Shown here: positions 17,961 to 63,116 of the stretch, piece by piece
Numbering within the stretch: position 1 is the first letter of the stretch
How the letters are laid out: each line of letters starts with the position of its first letter
DNA from: Malacoraja senta
Taxonomy: Eukaryota
Length of the DNA: 64,000 nucleotides
Assembly: GCA_038087875.1 (NCBI GenBank)
Contig: CM075992.1
Coordinates: forward strand, 8,682,001-8,746,000
Reading direction: 5' to 3'
Program-made: the position numbers and the translations under genes
The notes under the pieces: generated by a model
The model's input: the letters and a program-made list of their open reading frames with translations, nothing else
The model's database searches: none
Told to the model about the DNA's origin: nothing

Positions 17961-17966
17961 CTATCA

Positions 17967-17989
17967 TATCTATCTATCTACCTATTAAA

Positions 17990-18030
<41 letters not shown>

Positions 18031-18821: not shown

Positions 18822-18867
<46 letters not shown>

Positions 18868-19440
18868 CCTCTCTCTCCCCCCTCTCTCTCTCTCCCCTCT
18901 CTCTCTCCCCCTTCCTCTCCCCCACCCCCCTGCCCAACCCCACCCTCCCTCCCCTAAACCCCCTCCCCATCACCCCTCCCCTACTCCCTCCCCTCCACCC
19001 CTCCCCTACCCCCTTCCCTCCACCCCATCCTCTCCCCACTCTCTCTCCCCCTCCCTTCCTCACCCTCGCTCCCCCCCTCCCCTCCCTTCCCCACCACCTC
19101 TCCCCCTCCCTTCCCTCCCTCCCTTCCCCCCCCTCTCAGCCCCCCTCTCTCCCTCTCTCTCCCCCTCTCTTCCCCTCTCTCTCTCCTCTCATCTCTCTCA
19201 CCCCTCCTCCTCCACCTCATGATGTCGAAAATCGCCTCATCTGAAAATTTGATTTGTTATTTCCTGAGTTTTTTACTAAAATTGTTCACCAATGTGGGAT
19301 TTCTTTAAAATATAACGTGCTGAAGTGAGCTGGATGACGTCACAATGTCTTTGCTCCTCGCGGCAAACTGCGTAGAGTTTTCGACGCGCTGCCTGCTGGG
19401 CACTGTTTTCCAGGAGTGACTCCCCCCCTCTCCCCCTCCC
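17967..19440 (+). mobile_element. Possible non-autonomous Helitron fragment containing (GT)n and (CT)/C-rich tracts
   Basis: Begins with a.TCTATCTATCTACCTATTAAAA, resembling a Helitron 5' end, and has internal repeats of cagctgctgacNtcacaat. No CTAG 3' end was identified. Confidence 0.35.
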
Positions 19441-19597
19441 CCCTTCCCCCCCTCCTGATCTATCTCTCCCGCCTAACCCCATTTTCCTGCTTTCTCCCCG
19501 TAACCCCTGACACCATGTACTCATTTTTTACTCAATTAATACTCAATAGTATAACTCAATTTTTATCGAGCATTTAAACCATGTCACAACCCAACAG

Positions 19598-19689
19598 ATC
19601 AACACCTTCCTGTTCACCACGTCTCTCTACACGTTGAACGAAGAACTTTCTAATCGTGACATGAAAGTCTCGAAGATCAAAGACACAAG
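19598..19689 (+). CDS. ADGRE: ADGRE-like TM5/ICL3 exon (92 bp; INTFLFTTSLYTLNEELSNRDMKVSKIKDTR)
   Basis: caacag acceptor and gtaagc donor, phase 0 to 2. Too short to appear in the ORF track. Confidence 0.9.
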
Positions 19690-19929
19690 GTAAGCTTGCT
19701 AAGATGAGTCCAAAGAGCAGAGAGGAACCGTGACATGATGGCCCCTACAAGATGCCGCCGTTGCTCGGCAACAAGATGGCCCCTATAAGATGGCGTCGTT
19801 GCTAAGCAACAAGATGGCCACTACAAGATGGCGCTGGTGCTAGGCGACTCTATGCATGTTCTTCCTAGAAAGATTTCCTAGCACTTTAAACCTCTTTTCT
19901 ACGTGCAAATTTAGCACCATTTTCTTTAA

Positions 19930-20234
19930 TTTAGCTTAGAGATACAGCGAGGAAACAGGCCGTTCGGCCCACCGAGTCCACGCTGACCAGCGATCCCCGC
20001 ACACTAACATTATCCTACACAGGCCAGTGACAATATTACATGTGCACCAAGCCAAATAACCGACAAACCTGTACGTCTTTGGAGTGTGGGAGGAAACGAA
20101 GGTCTCAGGGGAAACGCACGCAGGTCACGGGGAGAACGTGCAAACTCCGTGCAGACAACACCCGTAGTCAGGATAGAACCCGGGTCTCTGGCGCTGTAAG
20201 GCAGTAACTCTACCGCTGTGCCACTGTGCCGCCC
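19930..20234 (-). mobile_element. V-SINE (HE1-like)
   Basis: Full copy. Confidence 0.9.
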
Positions 20235-20557
20235 TTTTTATATCTTTCATTTCTAAACGGTCTAATGACATTTGACCTCATTGCAGACATTGGACTTTGT
20301 CTTCAGTATGTGGGCTCCACCTTTCCTTGGTCATCGGTGCCGGCTCTTTGTTCTGAACCTTTACATACCTCTAGTTTCCCTCAACCCCCCCCTCCCCCCC
20401 GACTCTCAGTCTCGAGAAGGGTCTCGACCCGAAACATCACCTATTCCTTTACTCCAGAGATGCTGCCTGACCCGCTGAGTTACTCCAGCATGTTGTGTCT
20501 ATCTTTGGTGTAAACCAGCATCTGCAGTTCCTTCCCACACATTTTGTCTGTGGAACT

Positions 20558-21004
20558 AGATAAAAATGCTGGAGAAACTCAGCGAGTGAGGCAGCATCGC
20601 TGGAGAGACGGAATGAGCGACATTTCAGGTCGAGACCCTTCTTCAGACTGATGTCGGGGGGGGGGCGGGAAAAAGAAAGGAAGAGGCAGAGACAGTGGGC
20701 TGTGGGAGAGCTGGGAAGGGGAGGGGAAGGAGGGAGAAAGCAAGGACTACCTGAAATTGGAGAAGTCAATGTTCATACTGCTGGGGTGTAAACTACCCAA
20801 GCGAAATATGAGGTGCTGCTCCTCCAATTTGCGGTGGGCCTCACTCTGGCAATGGAGGAGGCCCAGGACAGAAAGGTCGGATTTGGAATGGGAGGGGGAG
20901 TTGAAGTGCTGAGTCACCGGGAGATCAGGATGGTTAGTGCAAATTGAGCGGAGGTGTTGGGCGAAGCGATCGCCGAAACTGCACTTGGTCTCACCGAAGT
21001 AGAG
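20558..21004 (-). mobile_element. Penelope-like element 3' end: GIY-YIG endonuclease C-terminus plus terminal repeat with hammerhead motif
   Basis: 21004-20747 (-) translates LYFGETKCSFGDRFAQHLRSI...PVTQHFNSPSHS...RKLEEQHLIFRLGSLHPSSMNIDFSNFR*. It is followed by CTGAAGAAGGGTCTCGACCTGAAATGTC at about 20646-20619. Confidence 0.85.
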
Positions 21005-21799
21005 AAGTTGTCAGTGGAACTGATGCGCTACAATGCTGAGAACTATATTCTGCACTCTGTATCTTCCCCTTTGCTCTACCTATTGTGTTTGAGTTTGGCT
21101 TGATTGTATTTATGTGTGGTATTATCTGACCTGTTTGGATAGCTTGCAAAACAAACCTTTTGACTGTACCTCGATACAAGTGTTAATAATAAACCTAAAT
21201 CCACTGGTGGGCCTTTCATCTGACAAGGTTAGCAGACTGCTTATTACATGTGACAACACAATGCTATTTCGTATTTCCGACTTTGCTGAACATATGCCAG
21301 AGGACATAGGTTTAAGGTGAGAGGGGAAAGATTGAATAAGAACGTTAGGGGCAACTTTTTCACTCAGAGAGTGGTGGGTTAATGGGACGAGCTGCCAGAG
21401 GAGGTGCAGTAGTTGGGGCAGGTATTGTAACAACATTTAAAATGCATTTGAACAGGTACATGGATAGGATACGTTTGGAGGGACATGGGCTAAATGCAGG
21501 CAGATGGAATTAGTGTAGATGGGGCATGTTGGTCGGTGTGGGCAAGGTGGGCCGAAGGAAGGGCCTGTTTCCATGCTGTATCACTCCACTACTCTATGAG
21601 ATGGCCAGAGATACAGGCTCCATTACTGATCATCCAAAACCTTCCCCAGAGGCCACTTCTGTCTCCAGCTGTATGACTCTCCATAGAAACCAGTTTAGTT
21701 TAGAGATACAGCCTGGAAACAGGCCCTTCGGCCTGGGCCGACCCGCAATCCCTGCACATTAACACTACCTGACACAGGCTAGTTCAGTTCAGTTTAGTT

Positions 21800-22218
21800 T
21801 TATTTGTCATATGTCGGTTAACACAGGGTCAGCGTGACAATGACATGTGTTTGACAAGACAACGGGTCACCTCAGCAATGATATTACAAGGATAAAATTA
21901 AGGTAAAAAAAGATAAGATAAGTGACATTGGTGGGTAAAAGACAATAATGAATAAAATAATCAACCATATATGATGTGTTTATGAGTTCAGAAGCCTGAT
22001 GGCATGATGATAAAAACTGATCTTAAGTCTGGTGGTACGTGCAGCCATGCTCCTGTATCGTCTGCCTGGCGGTAACAAGGAGTACACTCTACGTGCTGGG
22101 TGGCTGTGGTCCTTGATGATGCCGTGTGCCTTCCGCAGGCACCGCTGGTGGAAAATGTCCTGAATGGCCGGGAGGCAGTTGCCAGTGATGTGCTGTGCTG
22201 CCTTCACCACTCTCTGTG
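21800..22218 (-). mobile_element. Rex1/Babar-type LINE 3' fragment
   Basis: VKAAQHITG..LP.IQDI...RC..KA..IIKD.SHP....SLLP.GRRYRS...RT.RL..SF...AIRLLN. Confidence 0.8.
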
Positions 22219-22517
22219 AATTTAACCAATTCCAATTTAACCAAATGGGGCAATTTAACCAAAGCCATTTAACCTACAAACCTGTACGTCATTGTAGTGT
22301 GGGAGGAAACCGGAGCATCCGGAGAAAACCCACACGGTCACAGGGAGAAGGTACAAGCTCCGTACAGACAGCACCCGTAGTAAGGATGGAACCCGGGTCT
22401 CTGGCGCTGTGAGGCAGCAACTCTACCGCTGCGCCACCGTTGTCCAGCCCAGGGTGTGGGTTGCCAGTCGTAAGTGTGGTTGTCCACGTGTCTGACGGTG
22501 GTTTGTCTTCACTGCAG

Positions 22518-22686
22518 GATGCTGATGTTCAAAGCCATCGCCCAGGTCTTCATCCTGGGCTGTACCTGGATCCTGGGCCTGTTCCACTTCCAGGAGGAGA
22601 CGCTGGTGATGGCCTACCTGTTCACCATCGTCAACAGCTTCCAGGGGACCTTCATCTTCATCATCCTCTGCATCCTCAACCCCAAG
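22518..22686 (+). CDS. ADGRE: ADGRE-like TM6-TM7 exon (169 bp, apparent GC donor)
   Basis: RMLMFKAIAQVFILGCTWILGLF...AYLFTIVNSFQGTFIFIILCILNPK; the FKAIAQ.FILGCTW motif is typical of ADGRE/EMR receptors. Confidence 0.95.
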
Positions 22687-23027
22687 GCACGTAGCCGTCC
22701 AGTTGTGAACACAAGCAACCGCAGGCGCTGGTCGACAAAACAAAGACACAGAGTGCTGGAGTAAAGTGTAGGAAGGAACAGCAGATGCTGGTGTAAACCG
22801 AAGTTAGACAAAAAAAAGCTGGAGTAACTCTGGCAGCATCTCTGGAGAGAAGGAAAGGGTGACGTTTCGGGTCGAGACCCTTCTTCTACAGTGCTGGAGT
22901 AAGGCAGGGACTAAAGATTGTACCAATAAATGGATGTATAAATCACAGCAATAGGGAAATAGATAAGAGTTTGGGCAGGAAAAGGATTAAGGATATGGCA
23001 GGTATAAACACGTGGTGGTTTACAAAA

Positions 23028-29434: not shown

Positions 29435-30705
29435 TCATACAGTGTGGAAACAGCCCCCTCGGCCCAACTTGCCCACACCGGCCAACAATGTCCCAGCTAC
29501 ACTAGTCCCACCTGCCTGCGTTTGGTCCATATCCCTCCAAACCTGTCCTGCCCATGTACCTGTCTAACTGTTTCTTAAACATTGGGCTAGTCCCTGCCTC
29601 AACTACCTCCTCTGGCAGCTTGTTCCATACACCCACCACCCTTTGTGTGATAAAGTTACCCCTCAGATTCCCATTAAATCTTCACCTTGAACCTATGTCC
29701 TCTGGTCCTCGATTCCCCTACTCTGGGCAAGAGACTCTGTGCATCTACCCGATCTATTCCTTTCATGATTTTGTACACCTCTATAAAATCACCCCTCATC
29801 CTCCTGCGCTCCAAGGAATAGAGACCCAGCCTACTCAACCTCTCCCTATAGCTCACACCCTCTAGTCCTGGCAACATCCTCATAAATCTTGTCTGAACCC
29901 TTTCAAGCTTGACAATATCTTTCCTATAACATGGTGCCCAGAACTGGACACAATATTTTAGATGTGATCTCACCAATGTTTTATACAACTGCAACATGAC
30001 CTCCCAACTTCTATATTCAATACGCTGACTGATGAAGGCCAATGTGCCAAAATTCTTTTTGACCACCTTATCTACCTGCGACTCCACCTTCAAGGAACCA
30101 TGCACCTGTACTCCTAGATCCCTCTGCTCTACAACACTCCCCAGAGGCCTACCATTCACTGTGTAGGTCCTGCCCTTGTTTGATGTCCCAAATTGCAACA
30201 CCTCACATTTCTCTGTATTAAATTCCATCAACCATTCCTCCGCCCACCTGGCCAATCGATCCAGATCCTGCTGCAATCGTTCACAACCATCTTCACGATT
30301 TGCAAAACCACCCACTTTTGTATCATCAGCAAACTTGCTAATCTTGCCCTGTATGTTCTCATCCAAATCATTGATGTAGATGACAAACAGTAACGGGCCC
30401 AGCACTGAACCCTGAGGCACACCACTAGTCACAGGCCTCCAGTCTGAGAAGCAACCTTCCACCATCACCCTCTGCTTCCTTCCATGGAGCCACTTTGCTA
30501 TCCATTCAGCTATCTCTCCTTGGATCCCATGCGATCTAACCTTCCAGAGCAGCCTACCATGTGGGACCTTGTCGAACGCCTTACTGAAGTCCATGTACAT
30601 AACATCTACAGCTCTGCCCTCATCGACCTTTTTGGACACGTCTTAAAAAAACTCAGATTTGTGAGACATGACCTCCCACGTCCAAAACCATGCTGACTAT
30701 CCTTC
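29435..30705 (-). mobile_element. CR1 LINE, 5'-truncated, RT domain to 3' end
   Basis: ORF 29674-30639: YMDFSKAFDKVPH, GVPQGSVLGP, FADDTK. Confidence 0.95.
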
Positions 30706-36139: not shown

Positions 36140-39100
36140 ATTTTACTTCGGAGTCACGTGAGTGACTACGTGAAGAACCCTGCCAGTGCGCCTGCGCGTC
36201 ATTACGTCAGACGCCTTGACGCAAACGGACGTGAGGAGCAGAGCTCCTACAGTGGTTTGTAGTTTTTCAACTACAAGGTAAGTAAAAACTTTTTTCATGT
36301 TTTCCAGGTCCGTTTACTGTGGGTCTATGGGAATTTTTTCCACAGACGCCATGGAAAAAACGGACAGGGGGAAGAGGCGAGCGACACAGCCGACAGAAAG
36401 TCGGGAATCCGCGGTTAGAGACCAACCGTCTCTAAACCCCGGTACAGTCGCCAGCGGTGAGCATAGCGACTGTGGACCTGGGACTGGTGAAAACACTGTC
36501 AGCGCCTGTCGGGCAAAAGACAAAGTTTAAATCCCAACGGCCCACGGAGGGAGTCCCAGGCAATGGAAGGAGCTCCAGGGCTAGATACTGCTTTCGAGCG
36601 TATTGCCCAAATAGAAAGCCTTTTACACAGGCTGTTGGAGCAAAGTTCACTCAGGGAGGAGTGTACTGAAAGCCAAGCTGCTGGAAACAGCTCAAACAGC
36701 TCCTGGTACAGGGCTAGATACTGCTTTTGAGCGTATTGCCCAAATAGAAAGCCTTTTTCATATGCTGTTGGAGCAAAGTTCACTCAGGAAGGAGTGTACT
36801 GTAATCCAAGCTGCAGGAGCAGCTTAACAGCACCTGGCTCAGGGCTGATGGAATGCACCCTCAGGAATGAGGAGCGTGCTACGGGTCATGAGATTTCAGA
36901 CCCCGACTCTGACGGTGAGGCTGTACAAGGCGATAAACGGCAGCTGCCAGATGTTCCACCCCTAGCAGTAGGATTCGCTGCCCCGTCAGGGTCAGGAGAG
37001 CCATTAGGAGAAGAACTGGCCTCCTTAATAAATTACTTGGTTTATCATTAGCTGGAACAGCAGGACATGGATGAGACTGCAAGAAAGCAGGAGACCCCAA
37101 GTAACTGTGGGTTGCTGAAAGCAGCAGCAGTGAACCAAATTATCTGGAATCAGTTGCAGAGAATATTAAAGCTGCTGGGTTCTGGAATAACTGCTTTTAC
37201 CAGAATAGCAGGTAACAACCAAAAGATGACGAAGTTGCATCAGCAAGCACTGGGGTTGCTATGCAGCACCCACTTCGAGATCAATTATCTGAGGAAAGTG
37301 CTATACGGCCTACTATGAATCCGAAATTACCAGCACTCTGCAAACCAAGTAATATACAATTACCCAACTTACTCTTTGGAGAGGATCTCGGGAGACGTAT
37401 TAAAGAGTTGGAAGATGAAGCGAAAACAGGATTGATAAATACATCAATGGTTGCAAAAGAAGTATCCTTTCAGACGTCATACGGATCCTAGACCAGGACC
37501 AAGTCGCTCATCAACGCAGGGACGTAGCTGGCGGCCTGCAGCGGGAGTAAGGACCAGTGGTTGTGCTTCCGGGAGAATCCAGGGATCTCAGAATACTCAA
37601 ATGACTCAAGAGGTAGGTGGACCTGGTTCTCAGGGGAACATACTAACTGGATTAAGTCCAAAAGTTGGAGGCAGATTACGTCTCTTCTATAAACATTGGA
37701 AGAAGATTACTTCAGATGTGGTAATTCTGAATAATATACAAGGATTTTGAATTGAATTCAATCCAAATTATGATTTGCCTGTCCAGCATGTTCCTAGCAG
37801 AACTCTCCACTTTGCGAAGTAATGGAGGTTCAAGTTGCGCTTCAAAACCCTATATATAAAAGGTGTTATTAAAGAATCAGTCTACCAAATTCACCAATTT
37901 GGGTCAAATATATTCCCTCGATCAAAAAAGGATGGAGGATGTAGGATTATTATAGACTTGACAAGTCTGAATCCTTTTGTTCAGTGTTTGTTCACTTGCA
38001 AGATATGAAGTATTTTAAATTTACATGGATGAACCAATTAGGGCAGTTCAAAGCTCTGCCTAAAGGGTTAACGTTCCCTTCCAGAATATTTATAAAAATC
38101 AATTCTGGGGTTGCTGAGAGCCAGGGGCATGTACTAATGGCATAACTGGATGATGTCCTGATTATAGGAAGGACAAAACAGTCAACAGAAGCATCGGTTG
38201 CAGTAAAATCAAACTTTTGAAAGTTTGGGGGTTTCTAAATTCATCCAAAGAAATCAAGGTTAAAAACATGTACCTCGATTAATTATTTGGGGTTCACAAT
38301 TGATTTAGCCCAAATGCAAATTACTTTGCCCAGTGAAAAAAAAGGGTGGAGTTGATTAAAGATTGCAGTAATCTGTTAAATGAGCAAAAACCTCTAATCA
38401 GACAGGTGGCTCGAGTACTGGGAAAATTAGTAGATTCCCAACAGTCCAGTATGGACCATTGTATTATCAACAGCTGCAGAGAATTAAAGAACAGGCACTG
38501 AGAGTAAATGCAGGTCATTTTGATAGAACCATGCAAGTAACAACAAATGCTGTTCTAAGCTGCAGTAGTGGATTCTACATGTCTCAAGCAGTTCAGGCAA
38601 AGTGCTGATTGAACAACCTTCCATGATATTACAAACTGATGCCAGTGCACTAGGATGGGGTGCAACTGACTTAACATGGAGCTGCGGAGGCAGATGGAAT
38701 CAGGAAAAGTTAGTGTTACTGCAGACATGGGGAATTACCTATTTGGAGCTTTTAGGAGGTTTCTATGGACTCCAAGCTTATGGTTCTAACACAACTAAAA
38801 GGAAGGTTCAAGTTCAAATTAATAAACACAACAGTAGTTGCCTATATTAATGATATGGGTGGAATTAAGTCGGTGTCATGTGACAAAATGGTTAAATCAA
38901 CTTGGGTCTTGGTGTATTGAAAAGAACATTTGGTTTTCAGCTATCTATCTACCAGGTAGAATGAACACGATAGCAGACACCTGGTCACGAAAAGTTCCAT
39001 GATAATAAAGAATGGATGTTGAATCAAGAGGTATTCAATGATATAGTAATCAGATTTGGAATGACCGACATCGACTTGAATCATCAGCTATCGAGATATG

Positions 39101-41293
39101 TCTCATGGAAACCAGATCCAGGAGCAGTGGCGATTGATGCTTTCTCGCTACATTGGGGTGGTATGTTTCATATATATTTCCACCTTTCTGCCTCATAAGC
39201 CAATGTTTGCTTAAAATCAGGCAAGATGCTGCTTCAAGGGTATTGGTAGTACCAGATTGGCCTATACAGCCATGGTATCTGTTGATATTAGAATTAATAA
39301 CACAAATGTTGATGAAAGTCCCAAAAAGGAGTAATTTATTGCTGCACCCTGTACAGGGGAACAACATCCATTATATCATCGTTTGGATTTGTTGATTTGC
39401 AGGTTTTAAGAATGCCTTTTCTGGGACGAGGACTGTCTGAGCATACTGTGGACATGCTTACGGCAGCCGGGAGGAAGAGCACTCAAAAACAGTACCTTTC
39501 TTATATTAAGAAATGGGAAGTGTTCTGTGTACAAAAGAATGTGCAATAAAGTACTGCAGATATTTCAAATGTTTAGAATTTCTGTCAAAACTTTATTATG
39601 ATGAAGGTCTGAATTGTAGTGCAATTAATTCAGCCAGAAGTGCATTGTCCTCATATTTGGTTCTGGATTCAGAAAGAAACTCAATTGGGTCACACCCAAT
39701 TGTTTCCAGACTAATGAAAGGAATCTTTAATTCCAAACCACCTAAACCTAGGTACGTGACAATCTGGGATGTAAGTGTGGTACTGAAACAATCTGGGATG
39801 TAAGTGTGGTACTGGAACCTGACTAATGCTCGGGCTAAAAAATGGATGAAATGCTATATTCTGAAATGTACGAATATATCTCGAATGAAGTTTTTTATTT
39901 TAATAAATTTTTCCACTCTTCTTTAACTATCTTTCTCTTTTTTTTTTTTTGTTGTTGTTTTTTTTTTGTGTTTTTTTTTTTTCTCTTTTCTTCTTCTTTC
40001 TTTTCTTTCTTTACTTCATCTATCTTTTTAGTTCTATCTAGTTTAAAATTTAAAAAAAAGGTTAAAAGTATTGGAGACAATGTAATAATAATTGATAATA
40101 TTATCATTTTAAAAATGTAAGACTGTAATGATGTTAATAGGTTGTGTACTTATCTCCAATAAAAAATATTTTCAAAAAAAAAAAAAATGAAACTACTTCG
40201 TGAATGGTCATCAAGTGTGTCTTTACCTTTGGTCAAGCTCAGTATGAAAGTATTCATGCTTATGGCATGAGTGACAGCACAACGAGTGCAAACACTTGGA
40301 AAATTACAAATAGACAGTATGGAAGTAACTGAAGACAAGGTTACATTCTATATCTATGACCCACTAAAGTAAATTAGGCCAGGTGTGACAGGATTTAAAA
40401 TTATGCTAACAGCATATCCAAATGATCCATGTCTCTGTATTAAGACATATTTATTACAATACATGGAGGTCACAAAGAATTTGAGAATAAGGAAACTGGG
40501 TTGTTGATCACACACAAGAAACCACACAAGAGAGTTTCAATACAGACTATTTCCAGATGGATAAAAGAAGTCTTAACAGCTGCTGGTATTAACATTTATG
40601 TTTTTACGTCTCACTCGCGTAGGGCAGCAGAAACGTCGGCGGCCAGGGCAAAAGACGGCCCCGTCGACCATATCCTCGCAGCTGCCGGGTGGTCCAATGA
40701 GTTGATGTTTCAACATTTTTACCATCGGCCTATTGTTAATGCGGGGTTGTTTGCAGAAACTATTTTAAGTTCTGTGTAAATTCCTCTGGTTTAAAGGGGA
40801 TCTGATTCATTTCATTATTGAAATGAATTACTGCATTTGTGGTAGAAATGTTATTATGAATGCATGATTGATTATTCTCGTTCCGAGTCAATCTATGCAG
40901 TGAGAAGCCGGGATTGATCCACGGCATGAAATCACAAAGCTTTAAAATCTTCACGTAGTCACTCACGTGACTCCGAAGTAAAATAGTAAGATTAAACGAG
41001 AACTTACCTAAGTTTGAAGTTTGATCTTTATTTTATGAGGAGTTACGTAGGTGATTACGTGCCCACCAGGACCCTACCCTCTATCATAAAGGTCAGATGG
41101 AAGTTCTTGTATTACTCGTTTTATTATGAGACTATATTACTTCGGTTGTTGTTTTTTGGGATTTCACACCGCTGCTTTGAAGATTGACGCGCAGGCGCAC
41201 TGGCGGGGTTCTTCACGTAATCACCTACGTAACTCCTCATAAAATAAAGATCAAACTTCAAACTTAGGTAAGTTCTCGTTTAATCTTACTATT
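36140..41293 (+). mobile_element. DIRS1-type tyrosine-recombinase retrotransposon (structurally complete, ORFs decayed)
   Basis: Inverted termini; ICR 40949-41061; RT (VGGRL..F...W, KKDGG.R.IIDL, LDDVLI); RNase H (TDAS..GWG); methyltransferase-like (DAF, FPPF.LI); YR (HS.R.A..S, GWS...F..FY). Confidence 0.95.
39791..40187 (+). mobile_element. Poly(A)-tailed L1-type 3' UTR insertion in the DIRS YR ORF
   Basis: T-rich tract, AATAAA and A14 tail; flanked by tgaaac. Removing it restores WDVSVVLKLLREWS. Confidence 0.7.
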
Positions 41294-48225: not shown

Positions 48226-50268
48226 AAGATGGAAATGCTTCTCTCTTTACCCCCTTTGCCACGAACAAGGCCGGCCTGGACTCTTCAGTCCCTCACATGC
48301 TAGCTTTCAGCATGAGATGTTAAGCTGAGAATAGACGCGAAAAGCTGGGGCAACTCAGCTCTGAAGAAAAGGAATAGGTGACGTTTCGGGTCGAGAACCT
48401 TCTTCAGACTGAGCCAGGGGAAAGGGAAACAAGAGATATAGACAGATATAGAACAAATGAATGGATGATATGCAAAGATATAAGACGATAAAGGGAACGG
48501 GCCATTGTTAGCTGTGGCCTAAAGTGAGACCCTGTTTCCCCAAACTGGCTGAACCACCTCAGACCCGCTACGGGTGTCAGGGTTTATGGGGAGAAGGCAG
48601 GGGAATGGGGGTGAGAGGGAGAGATAGATCAGCCATGATTGAATGGCGGAGTGGACATGATGGGCCGAATGGCCTAATTCTTCTCTCACTTATGACCTTA
48701 TTAGAATATCTTTGCTCTAAAAAAATCTTTACATTCAGCCAACATCCAAACAATCTGTCCATTTATTTATTTATTTATTCGCAAGTGAGGCCTTGCTTTG
48801 TGCAATGGGCTCTCACGTGTTTGCATAATTTCTGTGACTACACGCCAAATGGTTACCGCTGATTGTTAAGCACCTTTGAACATGATCAAGGCGCCTAGAT
48901 AAACGCATCCTCTCCTCTATATGTTAATCACAAATGTAATATTTTTCAACTGAAGTTATATAATGTGCAAACATTTTACCACAATTAGAATCGCAACCTG
49001 GAGCAACGTTAAACAGCTAAAAACACAATGATCGGACACTTTGAGCAGAATTTGAAACAGAACGCGGCCTCATTAACGCAGAAAAACACAATGATGGCAC
49101 AGAATTTCCCCCAAGGTCTCGTCATAAAAGCAGTTCCCCACACTTATCAAAATGATAAACACAGACTCTAACATGTGGGGAGGGGACGTGTTGTCACAAC
49201 CCCCCTCCCATTGTATGGAAAATGGATATTGGTAACCAATAAAAAGAAAACTAATCATTGCAGATACAGCAATACTTAGTAAAATATGAAGGCAGCAATT
49301 CTCCAATGTACCGTGGACACCCAGAGCAGTTGTTGGTCCAGATATTCCGTCATTGGCAACAAGCATGGCAGAGTTTCGAGTGGAGACCACATTCGGGACA
49401 TGGCTGGTCCAATTCTCACCATCTCCTTGCCCTTTCCACACCCTTCCAAATATTCAACGGAACGCAAAGAGAGCTGGCAACTTGATCCAATTCTCTGCCC
49501 CTGGTCCTCAGTCCCAAGACTACACAAGGTCCGTGGCTTATGAATCGCGTGTGCCCCAGCAGTACGACACAGAGGAGCGGAAATTTCAAACAGGCTTGAA
49601 ATTTGCAATTGAAATGGATTAAAGTTCATGTCACCAGCAACGTACTGTATAATGAAACGTTTCTTGCATTTTCTTTGCCGAAGAGAATGCTCTTCCAAAC
49701 AGGGGGCTAAAAGACCAGCGCCTGCTTCTATTTCTCATGTGTGGGAAGGAACTGCAGATGCTGGTTTACACTGAAGATAGACACAAAATGCTGGAGTAAC
49801 TCAGCGGGACAGGCAGCATCTCTGGATGGAAGGAATTGCCGACGTTTTAGGTCGAAACCGTTCTTCAGGTCTCGACCCGAATCGTCAGCCATTCCTTCTA
49901 CCCAGAGACGCTGCCTGTCCCGCTGAGTGACTCCAGCATTTTGTGTCTATTTCTCGTGTGCTCAGTTGCTACTGCCAAGGAATCAAACATATAGCTCCCA
50001 CTTTGAGTGGTTAACTTGAGAGAGTGGTCACCGGGTTCCCAATTGTGACAATATTATTTAAGTCATCGGATCACCAAACCACCATGAATTGAGATGGATT
50101 TCATCCACCATCTGCACGTATGGAGATTAATCCCAAGTCTTACAGCAGAGAATCGTTTTGATGCAACCAGCAATGGCTCACAAGCTAAAACAGGCAAGCG
50201 TTATTGGTGAAAGATTTCAGCTTTAGGAATTTACGTGTTGATCAGGTTTAAAAATCCAGCGGTCCTTT

Positions 50269-50993
50269 TCATTTCCTGGGCTCCATGTCCTGCTGGAAGC
50301 AGCACCTGGGTGCGTCTCTGTTGTGGACGCGCTCATCCTGGGTGCCATCCGCCATCCCCCTGTCCACCAGCAGGTGGCAGCGCTTGTCTCTGTCTTCCTG
50401 CATTTCCTGCTGGGTGAACTGTCTCATGGCCTCCCAAATCCTGCACAACATGTCTTCCTTCTCGCCCTCGTTCTTCTGCTGCCGCCGGCTCTTGATCCCC
50501 TCCCAGTTCTTGCGCAGCCGCTTCTTGCGCTGCTCCTCGGTCTCCTGCTCCCGCCGCTTCTTGATGCCGTCCCAGTTCCTCTGCAGCCGGTGTTTCCGCT
50601 GCTTCTCGGTCTCCTCCAGCCGCCGGACTTTGGTCAGCTCCCAGTTCTTCCGCAGCCGATCCTGCCGCTGCTCCTGAGACTCCAGCTGCCGCCGGCTCTT
50701 GATCAGCTCCCGGTTCTTGCGCAGGCGCTCGTCCCGCTGCTCCTCGGACTCCATGTCGCGGTAGCGCTTCATCGCCTCGCGGTTCTTGCGAAGCCGGTCA
50801 TCATGCTGGTCGTCCGACTCCATCTGCCGGCGCATTCTCATCGCCTCCCTGTTCTTGCGCAGCCTGTCTCCTCTCTGCTCCTCCGTCTCTTCTTCCCGGT
50901 GCTTCTTCATCGCCTCCCTGTTCTTCTTCAGCTTCTCTTCTTTCTTCAAATCCACAGCCTGCTTCTCCGCTAATAGCTCCCCGATCACTGGAT
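50269..50993 (-). CDS. Terminal coding exon of an STPR-repeat (23-aa repeat) protein, probably DNA-binding
   Basis: ttttattttaag acceptor (phase 1), about 240 open codons, high GC3, six 23-aa E[ST]xEQRxxRLRKNxE units plus partial units. Confidence 0.85.
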
Positions 50994-51204
50994 CTTAAAA
51001 TAAAAGCCACAACAAATTGTGTTTAAAGTGGTGACAGTGGGTAGCTTTGAAAAAAACAACTTAGCTCTATTACAATGAGATTTGAATTTTAAAATAACTT
51101 GTTCTGATTTGGAAAGAGCTCTTAAGACGAATATAAGGGACAGGAATCAGACATATTTTAACAAGTGGGGGCACTGAAGCATGATTGTGGAAGCACGATT
51201 TACA

Positions 51205-51488
51205 GTTTAGTTTAGAGATACAACATGGAATCAGGCCCTTCGGCTCACCTAGTCCGTGCCGACCAGCGATCCCCGCACACTAGGGGCAATTGTACAATTT
51301 TTTTTTTTTACAGAACCTACAAACCTGAATGTCTTTGGAGTGTGGGAGGAAACCGCAGGTCCTGGAGAAAACCCACGCAGGTCACGGGGAGAATGTACAA
51401 ACTCCTTACAGACAAGCACCCGTAGTCAGGATGGAACATGGTTCTCTGGCGCTGTGAGGCAGCAACTCGGCCGCTGCGCCACCGTGCC
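51205..51488 (-). mobile_element. V-SINE (HE1-like)
   Basis: Near-full copy. Confidence 0.85.
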
Positions 51489-51526
51489 AATATAAAAAGG
51501 GTAATGTGCCCAAGTGCCCATGTCAT

Positions 51527-51856
51527 TATGTTCCCGATGTTGGGGGAGTCCAGAACCAGGGGCCACAGTTTGAGAATAAGGAGTAAGTCATTTAGAACGG
51601 AGACGAGGAAACACTTTTTCTCACAGAGAGTGGTGAGTCTGTGAAATTCTCTGCCTCAGAGGGCGGTGGAGGCCGGTTCTCTGGATACTTTGAAGAGAGA
51701 GCTAGATAGGGCTCTTAAAGATAGAGGAGTCAGGGGATATGGGGAGAAGGCAGGAACAGGGTAATGAATGGGGATGATCAGCCATGATCACATTGAATGG
51801 CGGTGCTGGCTCGAAGGGCCGAATGGCCTACTCCTGCACCTATTGTCTATTGTCTA
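51527..51856 (+). mobile_element. CR1 LINE 3' fragment
   Basis: MFPMLGESRTRGHSLRIR... followed by the 3' tail. Confidence 0.85.
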
Positions 51857-54800
51857 TTAATCAAGCTTGTCATTCAGATCAATCATAAACCATGCCACAG
51901 AGCGGCATACGAGGATTGGGAAAATTGCAGACATACTGTAAACACTGCTACATTAAAGGCATGCCTGAGTGCACCTGCAAACGCCTAGCCTCTAGGCTGC
52001 TCTGGATGAAATAAGATACCTGCAGCAAGCGACATGGCAAAGGCAGAGGGACTAGGAAAAAAGGAACATCTTATACACGACGAAAAGCAATACATTTCTG
52101 TCCACATTCCCATACTACACAGCCGAGGGTAATGGTTTGACTATCAGACTGTGTAACAGACTGGAGCTACTGAGCCCAACAGCACAGCTAAGATGTACTA
52201 TTAAACATCCAATTGAGTGTGACTGACATTAGTTTTGTCCAAGAAATAACTGCAGATGCTGGAAAAATCGAAGGTAGACAAAAATGCTGGAGAAACTCAG
52301 CGGGTGAGGCAGCATCTACGGAGTCGAGACCCGAAACGTCACCTTTTCCTTCGCTCCATAGATGCTGCCTCACCCGCTGAGTTTTTCCAGCATTTGACTA
52401 CCTTTAGTTTTGTCCATTCACCCTGCAGGTAAGAATTGTCCTCAGCCAGTTGAAAAATAATCATTCTGCGTTTAACGGTATTGTTTTCTATTTGTTGGTG
52501 ATTTATCAGTTTAGTTTAGTTTAGAGATACAGCGCGGAAACAGGGCCTTTGGCCCACCAGGTCCGCGCTGACCAGCGAGCACTAGCGCTCTCCTGATCGC
52601 CAGGGACAACCCTGGGTTGGCAACATAGTGACTTTAAATCCCTCTCGACGTTTTAGCAAAAATCCAAAATGTACTTCCTTCACCCTATGAACGTGGATTT
52701 GTATTTCTTGACCTCAACATAAAGAGATTAATTTTAACACAAGACATTTAAACAGATTTATGGATAGGATGGGTTGAGAGGATTATGGGACAAATGCAGG
52801 CAACTGAGGCATGCCCAGAATTTGGTCAGATTGGTGGGCCGAAGGGCCTGTTTCTGTGCTGAAGAATGGAAGGGTCCACATTTTTTAGTTTTAAAAGGGC
52901 GGCACAGTGGTGCAGCGGTAGAGTTGCTGTCTTACAGCACCAGAGACCCGGGTTCAATCCGGACTAAGGGTGCTGTCTGTACATTCTCCCAGGGACCATA
53001 TAGGTTTCCTCCGGGTGCTCCGGTTTCCTCCCACCCTCCAAAGACGTACAGGTTTGTAGGTTAATTGACTTTGGTTTAAAAAAAAAATTTAAATTGCCCC
53101 TAGTGTGTGTAGGATAGTGCTAGCGATCGCTGGTCGGCGTGGACTCGGTGGGCCGAAGGACAATAGACAATAGGTGCAGGAGTAGGCCATTTGGCCCTTC
53201 GAGCCAGCACCGCCATTCAATGCGATCATGGCTGATCATCCCCAATCAGTACCCCGTTCCCGCCTTCTCCCCATATCCCCTGACTCCGCTATATTTAAGA
53301 GCCCTATCTAGCTCTCTCTTGAAAGCATCCAGAGAACCTGCCTCCACCGCCCTCGGAGGCAGAGAATTCCACAGACTGTGGAATGTGGACTGTGGACACA
53401 AGGGCCTGTTTCCGCGCTGTATCTCTAAAGTCTAAAGACTTTCCCCCTTCTTACACCTCACAAGGTTTACTGTCAGTGTTTACCTAAACTCTAGGTATCG
53501 CTTATCTGTTCAAACTTCTACAAGATGTGGTGATGCCCACAAGATCAGGAACTAATGCTCCACTCTAATTAGGCTCGAGCTATCTGGTCTGTTTGTGACT
53601 GAGTGATTTCACATCAAAGTTACCACACGGTGTGGGTCTGAAGCAATCAATAAGCCCGACCCAGCAAAGACATCGGGCTTCATTTCTTGACGGGAAATTA
53701 ATGACTAGATGGCGTGTTCTAACAATTTGGTCATTTTAAAATCATCACTAATGCAACTTTCCCCCAGACAAGAAAACTGGTTTCATTTCCCTGGCTGTCG
53801 TGCTGAAATTTGAACTCTAGCATCCCAATTATCCATCCAAGATCCTGCGTTACTGACCAAGATTTATTGTGTGGGAAGGAACTGCAGATGCTGGTTGAAA
53901 CTGAAGATAGACACAAAAAGCTGGAGTAACTTGGCAGGTCAGGCAGCGTCTCTGGAGAAAAGGAATAGGTGACATTTTGGGTCAAAACCCCTCTGAAGAA
54001 GATCATAAGGGTCTGGCAGATCTGTTCCCATAACCAACTTTGTGGGCTGGTATCTGAGCGGGACAGGCAGCATCTCTGGAGAGAAGGAATGAGTGACTTT
54101 CGGCTCAGTCTGAAGAAGGGTCTCAACTTGAAACGTCACCCATTCCTTCTCTCCAGAGATGTTGCCTGTCCCACTGAGTTACTTCAGCAATTTGTGTCTA
54201 TCTTTCATTAGATTTCCAGATGTGCTCAGCAATCTAAAATTTTTTTTTCTGTGGTTCGGGATTGACATTTTTCCTGGTATGTTGCAAGGCAGCAAGCCCA
54301 AGATCGGGTGGGTCCACCAGTTAAAGATCACTGCCAGTCAATACAAAGCATCCGGGAGTCTGAAGAAGGGTTTCGGCCCGAAACGTTGCCTATTTCCTTC
54401 GCTCCATAGATGCTGCCGCACCCGCTGAGTTTCTCCAGCATTTTTGTCTACCTTCGATTTTCCAGCATCTGCAGTTCCTTCTTGAACAAAGCATTCCCAT
54501 GACACCTCCACAAGCCTGTTAGAGTGATCTTTGGCAGAGACCCAGTCACGTTTTCTCAAAGGCTGACTGGAAGATTTGCCACACGTTACCCATTTGTAGG
54601 CATTCTAGTTATTGCCAAGGCAACAACATCCATTTTGTGCTTCAGACCATTTTGCAGCACGAATCACCTTGACCAGATTGCTCTCATCACAATGTGAGAG
54701 AAGGAACTGCAGGTGCTGGTTTATACCGAAGATAGACACAAACTGCTGGAGTAACGCAGCGGGACAGGCAGCATCTCTGGAGAAAAGGAATAGACGACAT

Positions 54801-57204
54801 TTTGGGTCGAGACCCTTCATGTCTGATGATGATGGAGGGTCTCGACTCAAAACGTCGCCTATTCCTTTTCTCCAGAGATGCTGCATAACCCTGAGTTACT
54901 CCAGCATTTTCTGTCTAACTTCTTTGCGATCATCACAAAAGGTGTGTGTGTCCCCCGGGACCAATACAATCTGGCTAAACGAAAGCCTTCATCTCAGAGA
55001 GGCGACCCCAGGGTCGGACATGGGACTTGATACCAGTCAGGCAATCGGGTACAAGTTATTGCCTTCCCTCACATCGCAGAGCTGGGTAGAAAACAATACA
55101 AGGGGTTTGCAGGATGGACAAAACGTGCCCTTTATCATGACAACATTGCAAAGCAAGCAGGGCTGGAGAGTTCCAGCGTAGGATGAGCCGACTTACTTTC
55201 TAGCTTCAAGCTGAAAAGCAATATCTGTAGTAACTTGACGTCTAGTCCCCAACTTCAATCCCTTGATCTTTTCTCTACTTTGCTGCTGAATCTGAGCGTT
55301 TTGAGGCCTGATGCAGGTCTTCACTACACAACTATTAACACACCTACACAGAGAGGGTTGCAATTTATATTCCTTCTCAGGAGCAAACTCATCGGCTTAA
55401 ATTCATGGCGTCCTCCACCAAACAACAAATATAAATCTGCTTTACATTTCAATAACATTAAAGCACACAATTGTCGGTCTCTACTCGAGTAACGGCCCTC
55501 AGTGGCAAGAGTCCTGGCCCGGTGCGGAACAGGGAAAGGGGGAAGGAGCTAAAACGAAGAATAAGTCAGGGTTTCATGACGTGAAAATCATATAGAAACA
55601 GGCTCATGTTCAGCTGCAGTGCCCAACTTTAAATAGTCTGTCAGAGTTCCCTGCTCTCAGAGAATGACCAGTGGCACAGTACTGGAGAGGAATCTCGACT
55701 CCCAACCGAACACGGGTATGAGTCGGTGTTAATGAGTGGCCTAAGCTAAACGGTAAGGAAATTAGAAATAATTTGACATTCTTAGCCCGCAAGGTTTCAG
55801 CAAGTTTACAAACACACGCAGTGAGAATCGTGGCTGTTGAGTTGGTTTTTAGACGAGTGCTTTGCAACGTGCCTTGTGAATTTGACTGGGCCAGAAAGTT
55901 GGTAACAGATTTAAAACTGAAGAGCTGAGAACAGTTTGATACGGTTGCATAATTTGCTGGGCCAATTCCAAGGAGCACTGAGATCCAGCCAAAAATAATT
56001 TCATTACATGAAAGAGCATTAGCACAACTTTTAATTAAAAAAAAACACGCGATGGTGCACGGTCACCTGGCAGTTTAATTGGCGTAAATACTCACTTTTC
56101 ATCCCAGTTTTAAAATACCACCAGCAAATGGTGGGTCGGTGCCTCACTTAATCCAGACAAAATTACCAGAGCGCACTCGAAATCTCCCCTGGAAGTCCCC
56201 CCAAAAAATGTGGTCTTAGGTCAGGTGAGGCAGCCGACCTCGACCTCACCGGGACCTCCGCGGCCGATCAGCGGGTTGAATTTGTCTCCTGCAGCCGCGG
56301 CTCTGGTGCTCTGGCCAGACGGATATGTTCCCACGGCCATCCGGCAAAACAGATAAATGGAAAGGCTCAGGAACCGAGGGTGCTGTGAAAAACGGCGGTG
56401 GGCCTGTACTGAATTTAAATTTCCCCACCCTCATGGAGGCAATTAAACCTCTGCACCCTGACCAGTGGTGAAACCTCTAGATTACCACTAGTACCGAATA
56501 CTGTGACGTACCACTACTGTAATGCTATCCTAACCTGGCCATAATATATGCTGGTGGCTACTGTTGGTGTGTGTTTCATTTTGGATGAAGAGCCAATAGA
56601 TTATGAATTACAGGTTTTGTTCATTAACCATTAGATTTGGAAGCCAAATCGTCAGAATTAGAAAATATTTCTAAACAATGGCATTTTGTCGGATGCAAGT
56701 GTGGTCAAATAGGGTAAATATGATTGGGTCAGTGTAACTGGAAAGAGATTGCAGAGTAACTTAAGTATACGTTCAATGCCTTAAAGGACAAAGCATGAAC
56801 GGACCTTCAAAATGGAGATTTTGAATGGAATTTCTTTAGCCAGAGGATGGTGAATTTGTGGAATTCATTGCCACAGACAGCTGCGATGGACAAGACATTG
56901 GCTGTTTTTAAGGCAGGTTCCTGGTTAGGAAGCGAGTCAAAGGTTATGGGGAGAGGGCAGAAGAATAAGATTGAGAAGGAAAAATAGATCAGCGATCATT
57001 GAATGGCAGAGTAGACTCAATAGGCTAAATGACCCAATTCTGTTCCTGTGTCTTATGCTCTTGTCTTTTTGCACTATTATTGTTTGTTTGCTTTTCATGC
57101 GTGTGCTTGTGTGTGTACGCACTGAACTTTTTTTCCCAAAGTTTATTATATTGTTTACAGTTTACATGTTTAAGAAGGAACTGCAGATGCTGGAATATCG
57201 AAGG

Positions 57205-57413
57205 TGGACAAAAATGCTGGAGAAACTCAGCGGTTGAGGCAGCATCTATGGAGCGAAGGAAATAGGCAACGTTCCGGGTCGAAACCCTTCTTCAGACTGA
57301 TGTGTCTGAAGTCACACATCAGTCTGAAGAAGGGGTTCGACCCGAAACGTTGCCTATTTCCTTCGCTCCATAGATGCTGCCTCACCCGCTGAGTTTCTCC
57401 AGCATTTTTGTCT
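57205..57413. repeat. Inverted pair of Penelope terminal repeats forming a hairpin with ~100-bp arms and two hammerhead motifs
   Basis: Arms meet at gactgatgtgt-ctgaagtc-acacatcagtc; the + strand core CTGAAGA...GAAACGTT lies at 57324-57351. Confidence 0.85.
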
Positions 57414-57865
57414 ACAGTGTTTACATATTGTGTTGTGCTGCTGCAAGTAAGAATTTCATTGTCCTATCTGGGACAGATGACAATAAAACACTTATTATAG
57501 TCTAAGCAGAATGGGGCTGAATCGATCGTTTATTCTAAATGCCATCACAAACTAGCAATTGATCTCCTTCTGACAAGGAAGAAATTGGACATTGAGACGA
57601 AGTTGTGCTAGACAGAAGGTTCTCAGTCATGCTATGGTTAGCTGCAGTAGTGGTTTATCACAATGCAACAGGCCCAGAGAAGATCCAGCAGCACATTAGG
57701 AGTAAGAACAGCGTCAGCATTTTTACAAAATGTTATCAAATGAGCCAGGAGAGTGAGTGAGCTGAAAATATTAATTTAATTAATTTTAACGTACCGCATG
57801 TCACACAAATGATTTTTTTTTTAAATGATGACTTTTTAAGTGAAACATTGACATATAAAAGTTAC

Positions 57866-58107
57866 CTTGTAGAAGTGGAAGGCCTTTCAAAGAGAGCTCA
57901 GTCATAGTTCTCCTGAGTTGATCCCAATCTAAAGATTTTGAAATAGTGCACATTTAGTGAAAATACTTCAATGGTTGGCAAAGTGCTGGCAATATCTGAA
58001 GTTTCTGGTGAATCAGCATCGCTATAAAATGCTGTCACATCCTTGAAAGAAGTCTCAGTGTTTGGACCAGAATTCATGCAATAATTTCTTTCGGCTTTCA
58101 TACACAA
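57866..58107 (-). CDS. Candidate upstream exon of the STPR gene (ATG at 57953 or 57905; MTELSLKGLPLLQ)
   Basis: ctgtag acceptor and caag|gtaac donor; the phase-1 end matches the phase-1 acceptor at 50993. Confidence 0.5.
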
Positions 58108-59583: not shown

Positions 59584-60194
59584 CCTTTTGCTTTACGAAA
59601 TGCAGAAGTCACCTGTGCCATCTTCCCAAGTCACCAGTGCACTCTTCACAACCATCTACCCATGCCCCAACACCAACCACATTCTGCTCCGGCACTCGGT
59701 GGGCGGTGGATGGCTCTGTAGTTGCTGGTCGCCCTCCAATACTCCACCCAAGCGCTACGATTTCTGGGGCATAAGCAGCACGTTTGGCTACGGGAAGCAT
59801 CACGGTTGTACCCAATTATGGCCAATCTGACGTTCCGTACCTTGGGTGAAGTACGGAAGGGCCACTGGCACTTGTGGAACCATACCCCAGCAGGTGGCAG
59901 CCCCTGCAGGAAAAGCAGGAAGAAAATTGACGGGGCACCAATAAAAAGTTTGAAAACACAGTCTCTATTGCTCAGCACCCTCACCCTCCAGATATCAATA
60001 ATTCCGACTGCTTCAAAACGTCAACAGCCAGAACAGATCGACAAAGTACATGGGGAATACACTTGGCGGGAGAAAAACAGGCAATATATGGTGGGATTCC
60101 ATGGCATGCAGATTAACAGATCAATCTTCGATTGTACAGCACAGATTCCCGAAGGTAACAAGATATTTAATTGAGTGAACCAGCATTCTGGATT

Positions 60195-62406: not shown

Positions 62407-63116
62407 CCATAGCTGGACAGCATTCGATTAGAATCCAGTTGACTCATTTCCCAAGCACTATCGTACAATTTCCAGGAAGTCAGAAAGAGGCATCCCCATG
62501 GCTTCCTCGATCTTCTTCCCATCCTCTTTCATTAAAGGCAGTGGTACATAATGACTTTCAAAGTAGGAAATGCAGATCTATTGAAAGAGTCTTTCTAATC
62601 AGTGTGAAGTGACCTGTACATCAGGATCAAGGCATATTTTGCCTTGCACATGCTATGTTTTAGAATGGTTTCCTATGGAAGCCACAGTCAAACTCTCTCC
62701 TCTCCTCCCCCCACCCCCCCCTACACCTCCCATCTCCATGCACCCAAAAGAATATTAATAGAGATAGATTGTACAAAACACAGGTATTCACATTGTTCCA
62801 TTGCGCAGTGGATTTGTCTTAGTATCTAGACATTGTTAGAGATGTTAAAGGTCTTACCACAAAGAAAAGGATGTCCATTTGAAGACAGCTCATTCATACT
62901 TCTTCAGGGAGAATCCTGTTTCTACAAAGAAAAGCGCTGAAATATTACTTCTTACAATGCAAATGGCCACCTGAACTAATTTTAAATCGCGACAAAAACA
63001 TGGATTTCAACAAAAGGTGTAGCATCGCAAAAGGGCCTGCTCCACAATGTGACTTTCAACACTTGGTTAAGTAATTGACCGGATAACATAGTCCAGAGTA
63101 GACACAGGGACACACG

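Follow-up and report, generated by a model that had tools for sequence, protein, structure and literature searches.

A spliced, conserved gene of rays and skates encodes a zinc-finger-less array of STPR units

STPR proteins are defined by basic-rich units that each carry Glu1, Thr/Ser2 and Arg9 (PMC4856987), and the fold has one solved example, Bombyx mori (silkworm) FMBP-1 (PDB 5d23, 5d2q and 5d2s), a small protein in which a tandem STPR array is the sole recognised domain and whose four units are near-identical (60–80%; PMC4856987). ZNF821, the only human STPR gene named in the literature searched, combines two C2H2 fingers with four almost invariant units. STPR arrays are also found in Helitron-like proteins of the RepHel and DUF6570 types (represented here by P0082, P0062, P0005 and P0041), with four to nine units in one frame, and PMC11417382 describes STPRs as a stably captured Helitron domain.

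In the window (i.e. the whole 64-kb stretch of Malacoraja senta DNA that was analysed), a minus-strand locus was shown to be a genuine gene of rays and skates, spliced and conserved yet previously unstudied; no paper on the gene itself was found in the literature searched, mostly papers available without subscription. Its product resembles FMBP-1 in being small and in having a tandem STPR array, present as a single copy within the window, as its sole recognised domain. The features of the locus are as follows.

62858..62921, minus strand: exon A, the first to be coding, 64 nt long, with AG/GTAAG sites
59841..59903, minus strand: exon X, a cassette of 63 nt (phase 1-1) that preserves the frame and is mostly skipped
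57866..57928, minus strand: exon B, the second coding exon, 63 nt long (phase 1-1), with a second in-frame ATG at 57905
55197..55343, minus strand: exon Y, a candidate poison exon of 147 nt that would break the frame, with AG/GTAAGT sites
50269..50993, minus strand: terminal coding exon C, which runs from a short spacer through U0 (degenerate), the six canonical STPR units and U7–U8 (degenerate) to a disordered tail and the stop codon
50476..50889, minus strand: STPR array U1–U6, residues 70–207 of the 275-aa form
48771..50268, minus strand: 3′ UTR of ~1.5 kb, its end close to the AATAAA sequences at 48779 and 48771

The coding sequence is composed of exons 62921–62858, 57928–57866 and 50993–50269 (minus strand), with an optional 63-nt cassette at 59903–59841, and specifies 275 aa without the cassette or 296 aa with it. 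A preliminary description had delimited the gene at 50269..58107; the terminal exon was retained, while the gene bounds were replaced, since the gene runs on to the cassette and to the start exon at 62921–62858. Expression was assessed using contigs from four runs of related organisms (X4, X6, X16 and X17), whose RNA status is guessed, X4 being flagged as probably DNA. Exon A carries its ATG at 62897, an in-frame stop three codons 5′ of that ATG, 13 codons and a phase-1 donor, and its bin depth in run X6 (1.93) equals 16.1 × 64/534. The 13 N-terminal residues that it encodes are identical in the Narcine (P0001) and Rhinoraja (P0098) proteins. The mapped exons leave 68–144 nt of the contigs without a match, and an additional non-coding exon must be located upstream of exon A.

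Similarly, all 21 residues encoded by exon B match both Narcine and Rhinoraja. By sequence, exon B is a duplicate of exon A, with 40/63 nt identical in an ungapped comparison, a value matched by none of 20000 shuffles. It had previously been drawn as a 242-nt exon (58107–57866), of which the donor at 57866 is correct and the extent is not: upstream of the ATG at 57905, the longer version contains four in-frame stops as well as five other ATGs, and the observed depths of 1.9 (X6) and 1.64 (X16) correspond to those predicted for 63 nt (1.90 and 1.64) and not for 242 nt (7.3 and 6.3), the orthologues likewise fitting 63 nt. A reading of exon X as a third copy of exons A and B was not supported (16/63 and 19/63 identities ungapped, the gapped X–B score being reached by 12 of 1000 shuffles). 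It matches Rhinoraja P0098 at 20/24 residues in the same frame, the Narcine X1 model reads a matching stretch in a different frame, and its bin depth was 0 in X6 and X16 and 0.94 in X17. Exon Y, a candidate poison exon on the basis of its predicted splicing, would when joined to exon B introduce a stop 127 nt ahead of the last junction; the RefSeq X1 model of Rhinoraja includes it (80% identity across 60 aligned positions) and its bin depth is low in three of the four runs of relatives' contigs.

Exon C has an open frame of 241 aa (50994–50269) with 84% identity to Narcine over its whole length. The splice acceptor proposed at 50993 proved correct: contigs of X6, X16 and X17, three of the four probable RNA runs, stop aligning exactly at this position with 210, 271 and 195 letters more, respectively. 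The B–C joint (57866–50993) was absent among the 15 joints listed of more than 6700, a table dominated by repeats. Contig depth fits exons A and B, and the gene is spliced and expressed, as looked for in a domesticated gene, in relatives' contigs guessed to be RNA. The 3′ UTR, which includes a high-copy repeat within bin 49603–50136, was reached by contigs extending to 48787 (X4 and X6) and 48814 (X17), and the AATAAA sequences at 48779 and 48771 are the sole polyA signals within 2.2 kb of the stop.

In agreement with the earlier proposal of a spliced host gene, orthologues sharing the start exon, exon B and the terminal exon were identified in Narcine bancroftii (XP_069783257.1, ‘trichohyalin-like isoform X1’, 84% identical) and Rhinoraja longicauda (LOC144610609 X1, XP_078285555.1, ‘uncharacterized’). 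Both RefSeq labels are automatic. Both models begin at the exon A ATG; the Narcine model differs from the window gene in an internal segment, and in the Rhinoraja X1 model, which contains two extra exons, the terminal exon is translated in a shifted frame, whereby the STPR domain is lost (0 Pfam hits). The gene, as suspected uncharacterised and lineage-specific, was found in rays and skates alone among the proteins searched, a set with uncontrolled cartilaginous-fish coverage that does not imply absence from sharks or bony fish; it is possibly spread across all cartilaginous fish. No longer form was found among 1.84 billion representatives, no shorter homologue among 1390 candidates and no relative among 592 pattern matches in metagenome contigs.

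Comparison with Rhinoraja is indicative of purifying selection on the STPR frame, as 34 of 56 classifiable differences are synonymous, compared with an expectation of 25–35% (p from 1e-8 to 7e-5; omega-like ratio 0.21–0.35), an indirect estimate obtained from the Rhinoraja exon as translated in a shifted frame, 7/63 differences being unclassified. Dual coding of exon C, considered on account of the open shifted frame in P0098, was rejected: that frame contains three stops in the window, and the changes are biased towards synonymous ones when read in the STPR frame.

The six gapless 23-aa units previously described were recovered letter for letter at 50889–50476 on the minus strand, in the same register in Narcine, and Tandem Repeats Finder (TRF) reported a period of 69 nt with 5.9 copies. 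The proposed HMM search assigned exon C to Pfam STPRs (PF21107) with E=3.3e-19 and 69.5 bits, well above the cut-off of 27, the Narcine protein scoring 51.5 bits, and the only PDB sequence retrieved by phmmer at E up to 1 was silkworm FMBP-1 (5d23_A, E=2.7e-4). Glu1, Thr/Ser2 and Arg9 are each present in 6/6 units, with 7–9 K+R per unit, and the protein is on this sequence evidence assigned to the STPR-domain proteins (PF21107). Q5, L10, N13 and R21 are also present in 6/6 units and R6 and R20 in 5/6, while mean identity between units is 12.8/23.

Positions E1, T/S2, Q5, R6, R9, L10 and R20 are common to FMBP-1 and the window gene, which differs from FMBP-1 in having six canonical plus degenerate units and in the replacement of Met13, Ser14, Tyr16, Ala17 and Leu21, the residues that in FMBP-1 make thymine-methyl contacts at AT-rich sites. 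In their place are N13, R/W14 (Trp in the rear units), A/L/G16, M/I/T17 and R21, such that positions 13–17 shift stepwise along the array (NREAM, NRELI, NWELT, NWDGI and NWEGI) in an order kept between the electric ray and the window's species. DNA-contact positions are kept in 51/54 cases compared with 48/66 for others (p=0.0014, from one species pair with non-independent units).

The 275-aa product contains 74 K+R and 60 D+E, units 1–4 being weakly basic and unit 2 having a net charge of zero. An AlphaFold model computed without DNA (pTM 0.31) placed all three helix breaks at unit starts (residues 35–37, 82–83 and 151–152), the other units being fused. Foldseek with this model yielded zero matches, and a VIA-align fold search returned generic long helices and coiled coils alone (best Z 7.5). 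In the ESM Atlas, a cluster with 53 STPR proteins (257 aa, Chordata being commonest) scored 0.91 with a TM of 0.81 and may be the protein's own cluster; the N-terminal 56 aa had zero Atlas matches.

Taken together, the locus is a bona fide host gene for a zinc-finger-less STPR protein that probably works in the manner of FMBP-1 and of the STPR portion of ZNF821, and binding of the array to DNA is, by analogy, most likely. The protein consists of 34 aa from two duplicated micro-exons, approximately eight 23-aa units in register, six of them canonical, and a disordered tail, and would enter the nucleus by means of its basic array. Once bound, each unit would form a 2-residue linker and a 21-residue helix lying in the major groove, with R6, R9 and R20 contacting phosphates and positions 13, 14, 16 and 17 facing bases. 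Because each unit would cover 4 bp, six or seven units may span ~24–28 bp of DNA. The stepwise change of the base-facing positions, together with their conservation between species, points to a preferred site that is long and non-uniform. The short N-terminus, which has one SUMO-type LKKE motif, would recruit partners or be modified, and a regulatory role may be envisaged.

The automatic RefSeq label would instead imply that the protein has ceased to bind DNA and serves as a trichohyalin-like spacer or scaffold made of a charged single alpha-helix. The abundance of K+R and D+E residues, the long helices predicted by AlphaFold, the coiled coils returned by the fold search and the replaced FMBP-1 base-contact residues are consistent with such a role, but a spacer requires neither the strict 23-aa register, with E1, T2, R9 and the phosphate-binding arginines kept, nor a groove bias in which DNA-facing positions are conserved more than outward ones, and this reading is improbable. 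Far less probable still is that the locus is orthologous to ZNF821 and has diverged, or that it is the end of a longer gene with domains beyond the window. The 5′ non-coding sequence outside the mapped exons would be compatible with a longer gene, whereas the in-frame stop ahead of the exon A ATG, the start of both RefSeq models at that ATG and the search of 1.84 billion representatives argue against it. The preliminary description had seen no resemblance to ZNF821, and the gene is almost certainly not its orthologue: the two C2H2 fingers preceding the STPR array of ZNF821 are absent from the window gene and Narcine P0001, and ZNF821 blocks from lungfish, two teleosts and a rodent-type cluster share 59–67/69 positions mutually, compared with 20–29/69 with the window gene. 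The reported lack of zinc finger, Rep and helicase was likewise upheld, as Pfam detected STPRs alone in exon C and in full-length P0001.

With respect to origin, capture from a Helitron-type element and descent from an older, independent STPR gene are equally possible, and duplication of ZNF821 is only slightly less so. Helitron ancestry is plausible: exon C may be the domesticated N-terminal STPR array of a Helitron/Helentron RepHel protein, captured behind host micro-exons with loss of Rep and helicase, a history compatible with a DNA-binding function. The complete array is contained in one intronless exon, and 12 of 109 phmmer hits are Helitron-type STPR proteins carrying Helitron_like_N, PIF1, Pif1_2B or DUF6570, in keeping with the occurrence of similar repeats at the N-terminus of animal Helitron RepHel proteins. 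N13, present in the window gene, is common in Helitron-like arrays, and P0041 shares N-x-E-A-M; among 107 proteins, the N-x-E-A-[MKVL] pattern of U0–U2 occurs elsewhere only in P0041 and P0109, and in 0/16 ZNF821 units. A maximum-likelihood (ML) tree joins the window and Narcine sequences with P0041 (DUF6570), P0109 (UCH) and P0037 at 93/95, and P0082 (RepHel) ranks third of 107 against U1–U3. However, the sister branches are long (0.9–1.2), two of the three are odd in composition, and the fork is unstarred and drawn from 69 columns; nesting in a transposon family amounts to a weak sister link to one DUF6570 protein. The remaining 11 Helitron-type proteins rank 28–104 of 107, many STPR hits are in host-like proteins (THAP, zf-AD, MBD and C2H2), and tblastn with seven Helitron-type proteins gave no match in the 64 kb outside repeats. 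The window gene further differs from Helitron-like elements in having no Rep, PIF1 or DUF6570, and in its splicing, conserved micro-exons and purifying selection. Words of the CTRR type recur too often to be informative about Helitron ends.

A duplicate of the STPR-bearing 3′ part of ZNF821 would have lost its fingers, expanded from four to approximately eight units and gained new micro-exons. Both are vertebrate STPR proteins, ZNF821 being the sole human one named, and E-A-[MK] at positions 15–17, present in the front units of the window gene, occurs in 12/16 ZNF821 units compared with 8/593 others. The 16 units derive from four orthologues and therefore represent ~3 independent observations. 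REA[MK] had been taken as a ZNF821-specific signature (12/16 compared with 0/55 Helitron units under a strict pattern), a claim weakened because that pattern had missed P0041; a loose pattern is present in 5/91 Helitron-type units. The best BLASTP alignment, with 41% identity over 86 aa, is colinear and pairs U0–U3 with the ZNF821 units, all four of them; a second pairs an EK-x-DM motif past the last unit, and the ZNF821 grouping is not rejected by the AU test (p=0.39). Conversely, ZNF821 blocks rank 17–60 of 107, position 13 is D or E in ZNF821 and N in the window gene, and no similarity is present outside the repeats. Of the suggested Helitron co-option, the presence of STPRs in Helitron-type proteins is supported; as to the ancestry of the window gene, the block scores lean towards neither ZNF821 nor the Helitron-type proteins. 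Improbable as a whole is the scenario in which cartilaginous fish domesticated a RepHel array to give a free-standing transcription factor, with units diverged at base-facing positions in fixed order, that would act as a modular reader (one helix per 4 bp) of a 24–28 bp target, perhaps in a transposon or satellite.

As it stands, the locus is a solid uncharacterised lineage gene and no new kind of system. The best reading is that of a second, separate vertebrate STPR gene beside ZNF821, hidden under ‘trichohyalin-like’ and ‘uncharacterized’ labels, with one RefSeq model in the wrong frame. As its units differ at base-facing positions in a conserved order, it offers a ready test of a 4-bp-per-module code. 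If Helitron ancestry were true, the gene would add a route of vertebrate domestication absent from the accessible text of the review PMC7786948, and would provide a protein-coding vertebrate case together with a testable STPR recognition code, whose logic would be akin to that of zinc-finger or TALE arrays.

The terminal exon of the gene was found to comprise a single 241-codon open frame on the minus strand (50994-50269), in which the six gapless 23-residue units announced by the preliminary description are present exactly as quoted, flanked by one degenerate unit before and two after. TRF resolved 5.9 copies with a period of 69 nt (72% matches), a profile check bore out the STPR identity (Pfam STPRs PF21107, 69.5 bits, E=3.3e-19, cut-off 27), and silkworm FMBP-1 (E=2.7e-4) was the sole hit among PDB sequences within an E limit of 1. 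Since units, period, Pfam and FMBP-1 all match, the repeats are real and correctly named.

Exons were placed by mapping two homologues back onto the window, namely Narcine bancroftii 'trichohyalin-like X1' (333 aa, 84% identical), the single one of 1363 candidates in a near-length homologue search, and Rhinoraja longicauda LOC144610609 X1, found by phmmer scan. Judging by this pair, the window probably derives from a ray or skate. All four exons have AG/GT ends.

62921-62858, minus strand: exon A, with ATG at 62897 and an in-frame stop three codons upstream
59903-59841, minus strand: exon X, from homologue mapping
57928-57866, minus strand: exon B, from homologue mapping
50993-50269, minus strand: exon C, from homologue mapping

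Joined as A-B-C or A-X-B-C, these encode 275 or 296 aa, respectively, neither with internal stops. The exon initially proposed at 58107-57866 was not sustained, as four in-frame stops and five other ATGs precede the ATG at 57905. Judged from their sequences, the N-terminal coding micro-exons A and B are old internal duplicates (40 of 63 nt identical ungapped; 0 of 20000 shuffles). Exon A carries a stop before its ATG; in exon B the corresponding ATG is retained and may provide an alternative start for a 254-aa form, close in length to the 257-aa ESM Atlas representative of an STPR cluster. Two minus-strand segments that are intronic here (55343-55197 and ~56800-56744) are treated as exonic by the X1 model of Rhinoraja; the former, with good splice sites and a stop that would fall 127 nt before the last junction, is a candidate poison exon.

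Four sequencing runs of related organisms, from four studies, were examined as contigs (18 of the 24 listed runs were guessed to be RNA, none being recorded as such). Contig alignments end exactly at 50993 in runs X6, X16 and X17, with 210, 271 and 195 letters beyond, respectively; among the contigs listed for X4, flagged as probably DNA, none breaks there. In X6 (contig depth 16.1), the bins of B and A were predicted at 1.90 and 1.93 and observed at 1.9 and 1.93, with depth 0 in the bin of exon X. In X16, bin B was 1.64 both predicted and observed and bin A 2.08 against a predicted 1.67, while in X17 both bins exceeded the prediction from the single contig listed. The 242-nt exon size first suggested would predict bin depths of 7.3 (X6) and 6.3 (X16); the observed values fit 63 nt. 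Based on these breaks and depths, in contigs of related organisms rather than reads of the window species, A-B-C is likely the main transcript in relatives and exon X likely a minor cassette. Contigs extend to 48787-48814, adjoining the sole AATAAA signals found (48779 and 48771).

The RefSeq X1 model of Rhinoraja (XP_078285555.1) reads the terminal exon in a shifted Gly/Ala-rich frame, thereby hiding the STPR domain, and Rhinoraja changes were classified via this reading. Over 240 codons, 177 were the same as in the window, 34 synonymous, 22 non-synonymous (STPR frame) and 7 unclassifiable, compared with a synonymous share by chance of 25-35% (p 1e-8 to 7e-5; omega-like ratio 0.21-0.35). The shifted frame contains three stops in the window, which rules it out as a second conserved protein. 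Between Narcine and the window, positions corresponding to FMBP-1 DNA contacts (6, 9, 10, 13, 14, 16, 17, 20 and 21) were identical in 51 of 54 cells, compared with 48 of 66 at other non-structural positions (p=0.0014; one species pair, units non-independent). An ESM Atlas cluster of 53 STPR proteins, most commonly from Chordata with phylum the finest rank given (score 0.91, TM 0.81), may be the protein's own.

Comparison with four ZNF821 proteins from the same phmmer scan (lungfish, two teleosts and a cluster with a rodent member) upheld the view that the window gene is not ZNF821: three-unit blocks share 59-67 of 69 residues among ZNF821s and 20-29 of 69 with the window gene. As previously proposed, zinc fingers were found neither in exon C nor in the full-length Narcine protein.

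A Helitron origin had also been raised. Helitron_like_N, PIF1, Pif1_2B or DUF6570 occur in 12 of 109 phmmer matches, in agreement with STPR as a captured Helitron domain, as stated in PMC11417382. Seven Helitron-type proteins searched against the window gave no match outside the STPR repeats. The best block-score matches, among 107 ranked, were mostly unannotated STPR-only proteins, with ZNF821 at ranks 17-60 and Helitron-type proteins at 3-106. In an ML tree of 41 of the 109 blocks (69 columns; the two orthologues, every ZNF821 and Helitron-type row, P0109 and the 22 highest-ranking of the rest), the window gene joins P0041 (DUF6570), P0109 (UCH) and P0037 at 93/95, at an unstarred fork with long branches, two of which were flagged for composition; a topology uniting it with ZNF821 was retained by the AU test (p=0.39). 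Motif evidence is likewise divided: E-A-[MK] occurs in 12 of 16 ZNF821 units, compared with 8 of 593 other units, while N-x-E-A-[MKVL] occurs outside the window gene in P0041 and P0109 only. On these comparisons, Helitron domestication is one possible origin.

Several other STPR proteins were encountered in the scan. P0011, P0014, P0019, P0031 and P0100, from Logan and ENA assemblies, form an unnamed short STPR-only family with K-N-A-E-R units, which ranks among the top block matches yet is not sister to the window gene in the tree. P0082 is a 1502-aa Helitron RepHel with STPR-like units, labelled at source 'flagellar biosynthesis GTPase FlhF'. STPR-type arrays are fused to MBD, RING, zf-AD, THAP and UCH (P0015, P0038, P0059, P0066, P0102 and P0109), indicative of an often shuffled module.

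The window additionally contains the following features:

10400-23000 (approximate), plus strand: secretin-family seven-transmembrane receptor gene, present as exons (14196-14525 matches Pfam 7tm_2, E=8e-12), presumably an adhesion GPCR of ADGRE type; oriented towards the STPR gene, it serves as a synteny marker
29674-30642, minus strand: reverse transcriptase fragment, 322 aa
31140-34428, plus strand: apparently young LINE whose two long frames, of 405 and 710 aa, overlap; one frameshift, RVT_1 and zf-RVT
36700-40780, plus strand: decayed element, which we take to be DIRS-like, with a tyrosine-recombinase fragment (40444-40779; Phage_integrase, E=1e-4)

As described in PMC4856987, each FMBP-1 unit places a 21-residue helix, preceded by a two-residue linker, over 4 bp of major groove; E1, T/S2 and R9 stabilise the unit, R6, R9 and R20 bind phosphates, and positions 13, 14, 16, 17 and 21 touch bases. 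The window protein keeps E1, T/S2, Q5, R9 and L10 in six of six units and R6 and R20 in five, whereas the base-facing residues differ from those of FMBP-1; they also vary from unit to unit, the rear ones carrying Trp14, which is rare in other STPR proteins (3 of 609 units). An AlphaFold model (pTM 0.31) interrupts the helices at three unit starts only. STPR contributes to nuclear localisation of FMBP-1 and ZNF821 (PMC4821344), and the ZNF821 STPR binds double-stranded DNA (PMC13362889). By analogy with both proteins, the window protein would be nuclear and read ~24-28 bp, with a predicted preference unlike the AT-rich one of FMBP-1. That it instead acts as a spacer is improbable, and retains some weight because DNA binding is predicted from FMBP-1 and ZNF821 and units 1-4 are only weakly basic.

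RefSeq already contains a prediction of this gene, with a precomputed Pfam STPR match. Its description as uncharacterised stands, RefSeq names being uninformative and a literature search, with most subscription journals outside its reach, finding no paper on it; in the accessible part of a review of transposon-derived vertebrate genes (PMC7786948), Helitrons appear in background and references only. The window gene is a real, conserved and uncharacterised member of the STPR family, representing a second vertebrate STPR locus besides ZNF821.
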